Assembly: GCA_963720565.1 (NCBI GenBank)
Contig: CAVRFW010000002.1
Span: forward strand, 1-64,000
Source of the DNA: Candidatus Bathyarchaeota archaeon
GTDB lineage: Archaea; Thermoproteota; Bathyarchaeia; Bathyarchaeales; Bathycorpusculaceae
Reading direction: 5' to 3'
DNA: 64,000 nt
Positions within the stretch are counted from its first letter, which is position 1; every line of letters starts with the position of its first letter. Of this stretch, positions 55,157 to 59,263 are shown piece by piece. Made by a program: the position numbers and the translations under genes. The notes beneath the pieces are model-generated. The model saw only the letters and a list, made by a program, of their open reading frames with translations. It was not told where the DNA came from and did no database searches.

Positions 55157-57191
55157 CTACCGCAACTGTTCTTCCATAGCTGGACATAGGACGAAAGCGG
55201 AGCGAGCGGGCAGATAGAGACTAAGCATATTTCGCCTTCGTGCCTCAGTATCGTTCACGAGAGTGAAGTGGACTTGCTCGGGTATCAGCCGACCGTGCCC
55301 CCCATACTTTGGGGCGTCACAGTCCAGAATCATCCAGTATTTTCCAGGAGGAGCCTCAAACCGATAATCAGTGAAGGATTTGTGAGGATTAAAGTTAAAG
55401 GCGAAAATCAAATCAGCCCTCTTGAAGATAATGACTTTGTCAACGAAGTTTTCATGCAGAAGCTGCGGGACTGACGATTCAAGGAGCCGCTTTGTCTTAG
55501 CCATTGCGATCATGTCACGGTCAAACATGGATAGCAGATGATACTTCAGGTTGGGGTCATCTGCAAGATGCCATTGTCGACGTGCATGCTTGAAAGACCA
55601 GTTATTTCCTTCTCGGGGGAAATCTATCCAGTCCGGGTGACCGAACTCGTTGCCCATGAAATTCAGGTAACCATTGCTAGCCGTGGCCAGAGTTATCAAA
55701 CGGATCATCTTGTGCAACGCCATTCCCCGCGACACCCTTGGGTTGTCGTCACCAATCTGCATGTGATGGTACATGTCTTCGCCAATCAGTCGAAAGATAA
55801 GTGTCTGATCTCCCACTAACGCTTGGTCGTGAGATTCAGCGTAACTAATAGTTTTCTCGTCTTTCCTAGAGTTTGTGAGTTCAAACCAAAGATCACCAGT
55901 GGGCCATGTCTCATCTTCATAATCCTTCGTTAAACGAATCCAGTAGTCAGGCACCCCCATTGCAAAGCGATAGTCAAAACCGAACCCGCCCTCATTCTGA
56001 GGAACCGCTAAACCCGGCATCCCGCTGACATCTTCGGCTATGGTAACGGCGTCTGGCTGAACACTGTGAATCACCCGGTTTGCCAGAGCCAAATAGGCCA
56101 ATGCATCTTCATCCACGCCGCCGTCAAAGTAATCCCTGTATGAAGTGAACACTCGACTGAGACCATGTTCGAGATAAAGCATACTAGTGACGCCGTCGAA
56201 CCGAAAACCATCAAATCGGAATTCATCTAGCCAATATCGACAGTTCGAAAGCAAAAAATGCAGAACCTCTGGCTTGTAATAATCGAAGCAGCGTGAATCC
56301 CAGGCCTTGTGTTTTCCACGCAGGACCTTCATGAAAATACTGATACAATGTCCCGTCGAAGCAACTTAATCCCTCAACCTCGTTGGACACGGAGTGAGAA
56401 TGGACCAAATCCATAAAAACGGCAAGTCCATGGCTGTGAGCTGTATCAATTAAGAGTTTCAAATCCTCCGGCGTTCCGTACCGCGATGAAGGAGCGAAAA
56501 AGTTTGACACCTGATACCCAAATGAACCGTAGTAGGGATGTTCCTGAATGGCCATCAACTGCAACACGTTGTAACCTGCATCAACAATGCGCGGAAGCAC
56601 CCCGAAAGTAAATTCACGAAAGGAACCAATCTTCTCTTCCTCCTGCGCCATACCAACGTGTGCTTCATAGATTAACGGGACTTCTTCAGGTCTTTTGAAA
56701 CGAGTTTTCCAACGATAAGCCTTCGGAGGCAGCCACACTTGGGCATTGAAAATCAAAGTTTTCGGATCTTGCACAACCCGTCGAGCATAAGCAGGAATGC
56801 GATCCCCCTCACCCCCCGACCAGCAAACACGAAGCCGATACAAGTCACCATGAGCCATTTTATCTGCAGCCAAGCGAATTTCCCAGACACCAGACCCGTT
56901 GATCTTTTCCAGCTCAAATTCTCTGCTAACCTGCCATTTGCTCATGTCCCCTATCAGATAAATCGCAGTAGCGTTTGGCGCCCATTCACGAAAAACCCAT
57001 TCGCCGCGTTGGAAATGCAGACCAAAATATTCATGGCCAGACGCAAAATCTGCCAGAGTCATTCGCGACTGAGTGAGCCGCAGCTCTGTTTGTTCAATAC
57101 GCTCCAACCGATGTCGAATCTGACTCGAAAAAGGAGTTAAATACGAATCACTTTTCAGAAGGCGAGTCAATCGGCTCTCAAGGTCGCTCAT
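55157..57191 (-). CDS. glgB: 1,4-alpha-glucan branching enzyme, GH13_8 type; frameshift near 56320
   Basis: FREWAPNA, IYEAHVG, FRFDGVTSMLY, IAEDVSGMP, YAESHDQALVGD, GYLNFMGNEFGHP. Confidence 0.93.
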
Positions 57192-57378
57192 CTACAATCC
57201 TTGTTTTGTTTTAATTTCCAAACAACTTAACCTTTTCTTTAAACTCAGGAAAAACCGAAATGCCCTGCTAGCTATAGAGCTCATGCTTGTTCCAAAAATG
57301 GCTTAAAATGGTTTAAAATCCGTCCAGGCGCGCTCACAAATAATTTGCTCGCGTTGTCGTTTCACTCGACAAAGCGCC

Positions 57379-58695
57379 TCATTTTTCTCCGAGCATTCGT
57401 ATCGCGTTTGAAGCTGACAGGGCGGAGGTTTCCATGCTTGAGACCGACGGCTCTATGGCGTTGACATATATTAGCCGTTCATCCATGCGGGTCGGAGGCA
57501 ACTTGGTTACGGGTTTGAATATTGGGTAAGCGGCTTTCCAGCAGTGCTCTATAACAGGGACTTCTCCATTCTTGAAGATGCCGCCAAATATGTTGTGATC
57601 GAGGGGTTTTGGCGAGGAAACCGTTACCAGTGACTCTCCATCGCTTGATTTTTGGATGTTGTAGTGAGTTATTGGATCTGCGTCTTTCGTAGTCAATACA
57701 ATAGATGGAAGCTCTGCAGCGTTTTTCAGACCAAAGTAGTCCGGGTCAAGAACGCCACGCATAACCCGCCTGTAAACGGCTCGATAAGGCTGAGGCTCCC
57801 AACCGTCCATGGACAAGCCATCAAACTTTATGTCCGCAAGATCTAGAGGTGTTGCGATAATCACGCTTTCGAAAACCGTCATGCCTTCCTCAGTATACAC
57901 CTTGTAATTTCCTTTGGGCGTCTTTTCTATCACTTCAACTTTTCGCCCCAGCTTAATCGCTGCATCAGATGCCTCTGCAAGATGAACTGGCAGAGTGTTG
58001 TTGCCATCAGCCAAACTGTATATTTCGCCGGAGTAGACTCCAATTAAGGACGAAATCCCTGCGAATCCTCCTAATTCCGCGTTCTGTGAATATATGATCC
58101 TTGTGATGGGGGCTACAATTTCATCGATGAATGCTTGGCTTACACCTCTCTCAATTAAGACTTCAGAAAAGGACTTTTTGTGCCATTCGTCCAGGCCTGC
58201 GGACTTAAGAAGTTCACTTATATCAGCAGGGTTCTCAAGTTCTTCTCGGTATAGTCTATCAACTTGTCTTTTTACTTTCCTTAGAAGAAGGAAAACTTTC
58301 CCCAAACTGAGTCTGTACTTTGCCACAAGCTTGAGGCTAGTGGCAAATTCCTGCTTGTTTGACCTAAAAACGAATTCTGAACCGTTCCACACTCCGAAAT
58401 CCCTGCGCTCTTCGATGGCGGTGATCTTGAGCCTCTCAGCTTTCACAATGTCTAAAAGTGTCCTGTTGAAGCCATTGAAGAAGGCTGCTCCCAACTCAAG
58501 AGCTACCCCGGAGGATTTATGTGTCAGGATCCTGCCGCCTATTCTGTCCTGAGAATCATAGATAGTCACCTTTACGCCTGGAAGACGTTTGCGTGCAAAA
58601 TATGCAGCACAACAACCTCCAATACCCGCACCAACGACCGCCAAATTCTCCATCTGCATTCGAACATGTATGAGCACAGAATCAGATAAACCCAA
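57379..58695 (-). CDS. Prenylcysteine oxidase/lyase-like FAD enzyme
   Basis: AVVGAGIGG..AAYF, GVWNGSEFVF, VIIATPL, W.AAYP, LIYVNAIEPSVSSMETSALSASNA. Confidence 0.8.
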   Translation of the reverse strand: MGLSDSVLIHVRMQMENLAVVGAGIGGCCAAYFARKRLPGVKVTIYDSQDRIGGRILTHKSSGVALELGAAFFNGFNRTLLDIVKAERLKITAIEERRDFGVWNGSEFVFRSNKQEFATSLKLVAKYRLSLGKVFLLLRKVKRQVDRLYREELENPADISELLKSAGLDEWHKKSFSEVLIERGVSQAFIDEIVAPITRIIYSQNAELGGFAGISSLIGVYSGEIYSLADGNNTLPVHLAEASDAAIKLGRKVEVIEKTPKGNYKVYTEEGMTVFESVIIATPLDLADIKFDGLSMDGWEPQPYRAVYRRVMRGVLDPDYFGLKNAAELPSIVLTTKDADPITHYNIQKSSDGESLVTVSSPKPLDHNIFGGIFKNGEVPVIEHCWKAAYPIFKPVTKLPPTRMDERLIYVNAIEPSVSSMETSALSASNAIRMLGEK

Positions 58696-58777: not shown

Positions 58778-59263
58778 CTACTTTGTTTCCGTTAGTAGAC
58801 TTTCGAAAATGCGATGATGTTCCTCTTCATCGGACAAGATCCGCACAAAAAGTTTCTCTGTTATGTAGTCGTCTTCTTTCTTTGCTGTGGCTATTATTTG
58901 TTTGTAAAGATTAATTGCGAACTCTTCTTCCGCCTTATCTATCTGCAGTATATCCGCAACAGTTTTCCCAAGAACGAGAGGAGACACTTTGGTGGGCGGT
59001 TCTCCTCCCAGGTTAGAAACTCTCTCTGCAATCGCTTCCGCATGCCGCATCTCGGTAATGGCTATCTTCTTCAGGGATTTCCCTGGAAGAAAAATGGACC
59101 TGTGACTGGCCACAAAGCCTGCGGCTTTCAAAATAGATGAGTCTCCCCCAATGTGGAGCGTGTGCTGCATCATGTACTGCATTGAAACCTTCATTTCTCT
59201 GCCTGTCGCGTCGATGAGCAAAGTCAACAACTCTCCCGAGATTTGCGTATTTTTTTTTGCCAT
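58778..59263 (-). CDS. Ferritin-like (bacterioferritin-related) protein
   Basis: RE..VSMQYM, TEMRHAE, EE..I.LY, DEEEH. Confidence 0.85.
   Translation of the reverse strand: MAKKNTQISGELLTLLIDATGREMKVSMQYMMQHTLHIGGDSSILKAAGFVASHRSIFLPGKSLKKIAITEMRHAEAIAERVSNLGGEPPTKVSPLVLGKTVADILQIDKAEEEFAINLYKQIIATAKKEDDYITEKLFVRILSDEEEHHRIFESLLTETK

Follow-up and report, generated by a model that had tools for sequence, protein, structure and literature searches.

A leaderless prenylcysteine-oxidase-family flavoprotein of Bathyarchaeia and its possible tie to a UbiA-type membrane prenyltransferase

The oxidase gene and its reading frame

To our knowledge, prenylcysteine oxidases are known only as eukaryotic enzymes, which dispose of the lipidated cysteine of prenylated proteins. 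We describe here a gene for a predicted flavoprotein of this family in a stretch of 64,000 nucleotides from a Candidatus Bathyarchaeota archaeon (contig CAVRFW010000002.1, positions 1 to 64,000; the whole stretch is referred to as the window). The open reading frame (ORF) lies on the minus strand at 57379..58695 and has 438 amino acids (aa) when counted from a TTG. Most of the homologues listed are ~425 aa long, cover 96–97% of this 438-aa form and begin at the position of M13/M15. In an alignment of 24 sequences, the homologues begin at M3, the third residue counted from the ATG at 58659. Because the homologues are ~425 aa long and align from that point, the true start is probably ATG 58659 (426 aa) or ATG 58653 (424 aa), the two being equally possible. 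These ATG codons lie 118–124 base pairs (bp) downstream of the stop codon of the preceding ferritin-like gene. Residues are numbered from ATG 58659 (426-aa form) throughout, unless the 438-aa form is named. The ORF was thus divided as follows:

57379..58659, minus strand: coding sequence of the prenylcysteine-oxidase-family flavoprotein, 426 aa plus stop codon (PF07156, 157 bits)
58660..58695, minus strand: N-terminal extension of 12 codons in the longest ORF (TTG start), probably untranslated; homologues begin at M13/M15

The gene is intact and selectively maintained. When it was compared with three metagenome relatives (93–94% identical), the ratio of nonsynonymous to synonymous substitution rates (dN/dS) was 0.21–0.33. 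The G+C content at the locus was unremarkable. Two short contigs from an RNA-library run (X19) fell on the gene, at 58197–58456 (7 differences) and 57319–57546 (20 differences); these were not counted as expression, because DNA can occur in RNA libraries. It may be noted that among relatives the gene is found in two pieces, through a frameshift or a stop, at L003/L134 (genome G633, of the same genus), L010, L021, L040 and L087. This suggests either occasional decay of an accessory gene or assembly errors.

Family membership and predicted fold

The protein matched the Pfam family PF07156 (Prenylcys_lyase) with an E value of 8.8e-46 and a score of 157 bits (gathering score 27). The match covered residues 112–434 of the 438-aa form and positions 3–349 of the 363 in the profile. 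A six-frame search of the genome from which the window comes gave PF07156 again, at 157.7 bits. The generic Pfam FAD (flavin adenine dinucleotide) domains Amino_oxidase (74 bits) and NAD_binding_8 were also matched. When PDB sequences were searched, the sole full-length match was 9fxq_A, 'Ancestral Prenylcysteine Oxidase 1' (E 3.4e-38, residues 10–432). The remaining matches were confined to the N-terminal FAD domain and had E values of 7e-9 or weaker (e.g., 3lov, residues 13–88). NCBIfam holds no model for the prenylcysteine oxidase family, and all its matches were N-terminal and below the cut-offs, far below in all but the best. The best of these, the protoporphyrinogen oxidase model TIGR00562, scored 60 bits against a cut-off of 97.85. 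Since it covered only residues 15–88 and stayed below its cut-off, an identity as a generic amine oxidase or protoporphyrinogen oxidase fails.

An earlier reading of the locus from its letters alone (the sequence-only reading) had proposed that the similarity to prenylcysteine oxidase extends beyond the generic FAD motif, and the reach of PF07156 (residues 112–434) and of 9fxq_A (residues 10–432) bears this out. The alternative it had allowed for, namely matches to amine oxidase or protoporphyrinogen oxidase only, is contradicted by the positive Prenylcys_lyase profile. The three peptides that it quoted all lie in the ORF: GVWNGSEFVF at 58366–58395, FIDEIVAPITRIIYSQN at 58081–58131 and ERLIYVNAIEPSVSSMETSALSASNA at 57403–57480. 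Counterparts of two of the three are included in the 9fxq alignment.

An AlphaFold2 model built from 138 diverse family sequences had a predicted local distance difference test score (pLDDT) of 96.4 and a predicted template modelling score (pTM) of 0.94. A first model, built from 24 close homologues, was set aside (pLDDT 69.7). When the 138-sequence model was submitted to Foldseek, 9fxq came first, with TMq 0.89, TMt 0.82, 28% identity and E 2.4e-36. The next matches were nicotine, putrescine and monoamine oxidases, with template modelling (TM) scores of about 0.65–0.73. The model displays the two-domain fold of PCYOX1, i.e., a Rossmann FAD domain and a prenylcysteine-oxidase substrate domain. 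Judged by sequence and model, the window protein is an FAD flavoprotein of the prenylcysteine oxidase family with a predicted PCYOX1 fold. The flavin amine oxidases and their kin (NicA2, 6-hydroxynicotine oxidase, putrescine oxidase and protoporphyrinogen oxidase) have the Rossmann FAD domain and the overall architecture in common with it; in contrast, the flavin amine oxidases are only 13–17% identical to it, and their sequence matches are limited to the N-terminal FAD region.

No longer or fused forms were found at E ≤ 0.001, which is weak evidence given the type of search. The nine longest representatives of the family contained PF07156 and FAD domains only, except P0185, which also carries MIF4G, MA3 and VWA. 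None of these nine is fused to a membrane prenyltransferase of the UbiA family.

Conserved residues and the tyrosines of PCYOX1

Conservation was assessed in the 138 family sequences, and residues of PCYOX1 were located through the 9fxq alignment. The motifs and residues considered are given below:

58615..58632, minus strand: GxGxxG dinucleotide-binding motif, G10–G15, of the FAD Rossmann fold; G12 invariant, G10/G15 at least 90% conserved in 138 sequences
58531..58539, minus strand: GGR motif, G41-G42-R43; G42 invariant, G41/R43 at least 90% conserved in 138 sequences
58090..58092, minus strand: Tyr190, counterpart of PCYOX1 Tyr221 in the 9fxq alignment; at least 90% conserved in 138 sequences
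57526..57528, minus strand: Tyr378, counterpart of PCYOX1 Tyr433 in the 9fxq alignment
58051..58053, minus strand: Ser203, counterpart of the PCYOX1 tunnel residue Val234 in the 9fxq alignment
57406..57453, minus strand: C-terminal conserved block E403...S407..E410...N418 (IEPSVSSMETSALSASN); the four residues at least 90% conserved in 138 sequences

The window protein has 26 of the 27 residues that reach at least 90% conservation across the family, the exception being D264, which is replaced by E. The PCYOX1 residues were mapped by reading the 9fxq alignment with an offset of 20 between the numbering of the paper and that of the chain. This offset places Y, Y and V exactly at the three residues that the paper names. 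According to the available text of PMC11530802, the Y221A mutant of PCYOX1 loses all measurable activity. The same text predicts that Tyr433 contacts the cysteine moiety beside the flavin, although the enzyme can do without this residue and PCYOX1-like has His there. Activity is also lost when a residue of the tunnel, named Val234 and once V434W, is changed from Val to Trp.

In the branch of the family to which the window protein belongs, the position of Tyr190 was occupied by Tyr in 36 of 38 rows and that of Tyr378 in 32 of 38. The position of Val234 was held by Ser in 20 of these 38 rows, by Ala in 7 and by Val in 6, and elsewhere in the family mostly by Val or Ile. It is clear that the claim of homology to prenylcysteine oxidase (farnesylcysteine lyase) was sound by sequence, by fold and by the key tyrosine.

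Place in the family

An exhaustive search of representative sequences gave 2322 matches at E ≤ 0.001 and 149 at E ≤ 1e-30. A FastTree phylogeny was computed with 136 rows, consisting of the window protein, 130 of the 150 listed representatives and five close homologues; the 20 representatives left out were fragments or multi-stretch matches. The window protein fell in a clade of 24 rows (support 96). In a quick IQ-TREE run under LG+G4, a model more prone to long-branch artefacts than mixture models, with 71 rows picked across the clades, the branch of the window (22 rows) was split from all other rows with a Shimodaira–Hasegawa-like approximate likelihood ratio (SH-aLRT) of 86, not starred. 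Both trees are unrooted, have a weak backbone and contain rows without taxon labels.

Members of the window's branch have 6–15 residues before GxGxxG, and none of 23 rows carries an N-terminal leader. Leaders of at least 16 aa occur in four other groups (10/11, 3/3, 29/32 and 25/29 rows), and the majority of these leaders include a hydrophobic stretch. In a fifth group, which has 36 rows, most members are leaderless. The window protein is 25–32% identical to the leader-bearing representatives. By these sequence criteria it belongs to a distinct, leaderless branch of ~425-aa proteins, apart from the leader-bearing branches. The absence of a signal peptide, as proposed in the sequence-only reading, holds, the Rossmann strand beginning within ~7 residues of the start. 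Being leaderless, the protein is probably cytoplasmic or membrane-peripheral. The description 'eukaryote-like', however, was overstated, in view of the separate branch in both trees and the low identity to leader-bearing representatives.

Compared with mammalian PCYOX1 and PCYOX1-like (9fxq; available text of PMC11530802), the window protein has the same Pfam family, two-domain fold and FAD motifs. The counterparts of Tyr221 and Tyr433 are both kept, and the tunnel has Ser in place of Val234. Unlike mammalian PCYOX1, it lacks an N-terminal leader and a C-terminal retention signal, and it is 426 aa long as against 482 in the crystallised 9fxq chain. The setting differs as well: no protein prenyltransferase or terminal oxidase was detected in the host, and a UbiA neighbour recurs in relatives. 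The plant farnesylcysteine lyase (FCLY) is of the same Pfam family by name. Plant enzymes group with the longer, leader-bearing representatives and not with the branch of the window, a placement that stands at the level of a lead. It comes from an Atlas look-up of the leader-bearing representative P0189, which returned plant (Streptophyta) and arthropod PF07156 clusters. For the window protein, the look-up gave PF07156 clusters with mostly bacterial members on record, and this too is taken as a lead only.

Host and distribution

The genome assembly that contains the window consists of 13 contigs totalling 2.09 Mb, with 88.8% completeness and 1.83% estimated contamination. All 10 related loci in species-representative genomes were from metagenome-assembled genomes of Bathyarchaeota/Bathyarchaeia (55–74% identity), in agreement with the archaeal host proposed from the sequence. 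The archaeon is one of wetlands or sediments; runs labelled as freshwater-sediment and wetland contained 0.2–0.31 of the sampled words of the 64-kb stretch.

In the phylum sample, PF07156 was detected in 4 of 301 genomes, and in the class sample in 7 of 301, two of the latter being outside the window's order. Within the order, 39 of 401 genomes were positive; among the high-quality genomes the figure was 22 of 238, and 7 of 117 genera were represented. There was no match in any of 14 control genomes. The oxidase is a patchy accessory gene, concentrated in few genera.

In a collection of 5.8 billion proteins, 272 relatives were found at E ≤ 0.001. All 120 relatives among the matches listed had PF07156, and 30 of these 120 bore the automatic annotation 'prenylcysteine oxidase / farnesylcysteine lyase', in each case from one source. 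The homology as such is thus already present in automatic annotations. In the full-text literature, with subscription journals outside the coverage, no publication on a prokaryotic or archaeal member of the family was found.

Association with a UbiA-family prenyltransferase

The loci of relatives (87 in number) were deduplicated at 97% to 76 groups, of which 58 were assessable, i.e., had at least 1 kilobase (kb) upstream or a visible neighbour. One of the locus scans used the FAD-motif pattern only, and ~50 of its 80 loci were true relatives. A UbiA-family membrane prenyltransferase of ~299 aa was the one recurrent neighbour that suggests a function. It lies 13–510 bp upstream of the oxidase gene in 18 of the 58 groups, 8 of which have the two genes in the same direction and 10 in divergent orientation. 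One of the 18 groups (L076/L077) has a different type of UbiA, 25% identical to the common type. A divergent UbiA–oxidase pair is also carried by G633, a genome of the same genus as that of the window.

The common type of UbiA keeps both Asp-rich motifs. Its best NCBIfam matches were the ChlG/BchG models, far below the cut-offs, and its nearest solved relatives were the Archaeoglobus UbiA homologue AfUbiA (4tq3; E 4e-11) and chlorophyll a synthase (E 2e-8). As cited in PMC3930316, Meng et al. (2009) reportedly found the BchG of an uncultivated crenarchaeote to be a functional bacteriochlorophyll a synthase, with its in vivo role left open.

The window's own genome has seven UbiA-family matches in all. 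Among them is a full-length orthologue of the common type, 70% identical, on another contig (G000:C3:56820-57713; 1501–2400 of L043). It is flanked by a xylose-isomerase-like TIM-barrel gene, a gene for a VTT-domain membrane protein and one for a PUA-domain protein. As this orthologue lies outside the window, the link to UbiA is invisible in the window alone.

When the same sample of 401 order genomes was searched for the UbiA orthologue (cut-off E ≤ 1e-30) and the two tables were compared by hand, it was present in 79 genomes. The orthologue occurred in 29 of the 39 oxidase-positive genomes compared to 50 of the 362 oxidase-negative ones. The same direction was observed within genus g4 (8/10 vs 19/79), genus g7 (8/10 vs 6/13) and family f5 (8/12 vs 10/48). 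By coordinates, the two genes were adjacent in 7 of the 29 genomes that have both. These results are given as counts without a statistical test, because the genomes are kin.

Prenylation machinery and oxygen

Neither subunit of the protein prenyltransferases (PF00432 for beta, PF01239 for alpha) was matched at E ≤ 0.01 in the window's own genome, which is 88.8% complete. As neither subunit family was found, nothing points to prenylation of the CaaX type. A weak ICMT-family match was obtained in the same genome (29.1 bits, cut-off 24). It is not diagnostic, because the family also matched in 6 of 14 control prokaryotes. Neither a haem-copper oxidase subunit I (COX1) nor cytochrome bd was found in this 88.8%-complete genome. 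Like the negatives for the prenyltransferase subunits, these results fall short of proving absence. In the absence of a detected terminal oxidase, the electron acceptor of the flavoprotein may not be O2.

Other neighbouring genes

Directly upstream of the oxidase gene lies the following gene:

58778..59263, minus strand: ferritin/bacterioferritin-like gene, separated from the oxidase by a gap of 118 bp (Pfam Ferritin, 65 bits)

The NCBIfam match of this neighbour to bfr was below the cut-off. A peroxide or iron-handling link through it is speculative, and was rejected as a peroxide link, since the gene stands beside the oxidase only in the window and in the metagenome loci L045 and L046. These two, 93–95% identical, are also the only ones to share the ferritin-like and branching-enzyme neighbours with the window.

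Downstream of the oxidase there is a frameshifted GH13 branching-enzyme gene, followed by genes for DUF5752, an OB-fold protein, an Na/Ca exchanger, GT2, a DUF4332 protein and a methyltransferase. The glycogen-branching-enzyme gene (55157–57191, minus strand; CBM48, alpha-amylase catalytic and C-terminal domains) reads as two overlapping ORFs, with the break at ~56325. Compared with L046, which is 95% identical and has an open frame there, the window has one extra T; the frameshift may be real or an assembly error.

Some relatives showed other arrangements. In two kin genomes of genus g19 (L135, G162:C1 2410–5724; and L021), the oxidase is followed, after a gap of 23 bp and on the same strand, by cysK and a cysE-like gene. 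The cysK product matched TIGR01139 with 460 bits, above the cut-off, and the cysE-like gene is one for a serine O-acetyltransferase. A connection with cysteine metabolism is hinted at, in these two kin genomes only. At L004, L010, L014, L032 and L041 the oxidase comes directly after trpB-trpA, with the whole trp operon in L004 and L010; this is probably plain synteny in one sublineage. At L133 (G818:C7, 6991–9168), which is outside the order, a catalase-peroxidase-like gene of 725 aa lies ~1.7 kb downstream on the same strand, as a single case.

Proposed function and its alternatives

We tentatively favor, at somewhat less than an even chance, an endogenous function for the protein: that of an oxidase of isoprenoid-conjugate thioethers, tied to the ChlG/BchG-like UbiA and not to the turnover of CaaX proteins. 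Since it has the same family, fold and FAD motifs as PCYOX1, and the counterparts of Tyr221 and Tyr433, we infer the same chemistry. The enzyme would act like PCYOX1: in a long-chain thioether of the isoprenoid-cysteine type, the flavin would accept a hydride from the carbon that adjoins the sulfur, and the oxidised product would then break down to an isoprenoid aldehyde and a free thiol. An electron acceptor other than O2 may serve. Judged by context, the enzyme would act on an endogenous conjugate of an isoprenoid, connected with one particular ChlG/BchG-like UbiA membrane prenyltransferase; in the window's own genome the two genes would have become separated. Such a conjugate is the most economical reading, because no CaaX machinery was found, because the protein has no leader, and because the link to a membrane prenyltransferase is repeated.

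Several observations weigh against this proposal. In the window the oxidase gene is not beside a UbiA, nor is it so in 40 of the 58 assessable loci or at the two matches outside the order (G734 and G818). No UbiA orthologue was found in 10 of the 39 oxidase genomes. The reverse case, the UbiA with no oxidase, occurs in 50 genomes; the UbiA is therefore not dependent on the oxidase, and the association between them may be a loose one. The counts overstate independence, because most UbiA-adjacent loci are close kin from family f1. Not one of the 10 neighbours in the window was seen again at the 10 related genome loci. The window protein has Ser203 where PCYOX1 has the tunnel residue Val234, and aligned tyrosines are no proof of cysteine binding. 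With neither COX1 nor cytochrome bd found, the genome is a poor fit for an obligately O2-dependent oxidase. Moreover, the UbiA family is known for C- and O-prenylation and is not known for S-prenylation.

In another reading the substrate is no thioether at all, and the protein oxidises, desaturates or reduces another isoprenoid or an amine, e.g., the side chain of the UbiA product. CrtI- and RetSat-like relatives in the superfamily modify side chains. The superfamily is chemically versatile, as the nicotine, putrescine and monoamine oxidases that come next in structure indicate, and the tunnel residue is unlike that found in the other branches. Esters, not thioethers, are the products of UbiA enzymes of the ChlG/BchG type, and it is the ChlG/BchG models (below the cut-offs), AfUbiA (4tq3) and chlorophyll a synthase that the common UbiA resembles most. 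We nevertheless regard this reading as unlikely, since 9fxq is by far the best match in both structure and sequence, and the counterpart of Tyr221, a residue to which the available text of PMC11530802 ascribes a part in binding the cysteine head, is retained in 36 of 38 branch rows and in at least 90% of sequences family-wide. The family membership, the fold and the conserved tyrosines would also suit a classical prenylcysteine oxidase that scavenges, acting on free farnesyl- or geranylgeranyl-cysteine from the digestion of imported peptides out of eukaryotic detritus (of plants, fungi or protists) and recovering cysteine and an isoprenoid aldehyde. The presence of words of the stretch in freshwater-sediment and wetland runs is consistent with it, as are the cysK and cysE-like genes after the oxidase in two related genomes, and extracellular protein degradation is suggested as a speciality of these archaea in the available text of PMC3930316. 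However, no transporter or peptidase recurs beside the oxidase, while the neighbour that does recur is a prenyltransferase and points to endogenous isoprenoid chemistry. The gene is present in only 39 of the 401 order genomes, although the habitats of the order are similar, and the cysK link comes from two kin genomes only. Scavenging thus appears distinctly unlikely.

Recycling of lipid anchors, in which the enzyme would cleave the S-(archaeol/diphytanylglyceryl)-cysteine thioether left by degraded archaeal lipobox lipoproteins, is improbable. Thioether-linked archaeol has been shown on lipoprotein cysteines of Haloferax volcanii (PMC12462473, available text), and the PCYOX fold has a long lipid tunnel with a pocket for the cysteine head (PMC11530802, available text). 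Against this, the carbon adjacent to sulfur would be non-allylic, a housekeeping step would hardly be so patchily distributed, and the case is weakened by the relatively few lipobox lipoproteins that the available text of PMC12462473 gives for the Thaumarchaeota–Aigarchaeota–Crenarchaeota–Korarchaeota (TACK) and Asgard archaea, the groups in which the gene occurs. An artefact, either a piece of eukaryotic or bacterial contamination in the bin or a pseudogene in decay, is hardly credible. The assembly is in 13 contigs with 1.83% estimated contamination, and the neighbouring branching-enzyme gene is frameshifted; but the contig around the oxidase gene is at least 64 kb long, the G+C content of the gene does not stand out, its frame is intact with dN/dS < 0.35, and orthologues occur in many Bathyarchaeia genomes, including the single-contig genomes G162 and G538.

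A bolder version of the thioether proposal would make UbiA and the oxidase a make-and-break pair for S-isoprenylated cysteine, in proteins, peptides or a small thiol, in the TACK and Asgard archaea. We give it very little credence. If true, it would amount to CaaX-independent archaeal S-prenylation, with a turnover enzyme that shares ancestry with the eukaryotic PCYOX.

Significance

For this window alone the gain is modest, as its oxidase gene stands alone. Taken together with its relatives, the protein represents a conserved leaderless archaeal branch that lies repeatedly beside a membrane prenyltransferase, with no protein prenyltransferase found. This suggests an unrecognised archaeal isoprenoid-thioether metabolite or modification, or else a new substrate class for the PCYOX fold. 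The question is easily tested: the enzyme is of a soluble type and requires FAD only, and commercial substrates and an H2O2 read-out exist. Knowledge of the substrate would also be a first step towards the function of the ChlG/BchG-like UbiA enzymes of Bathyarchaeia.

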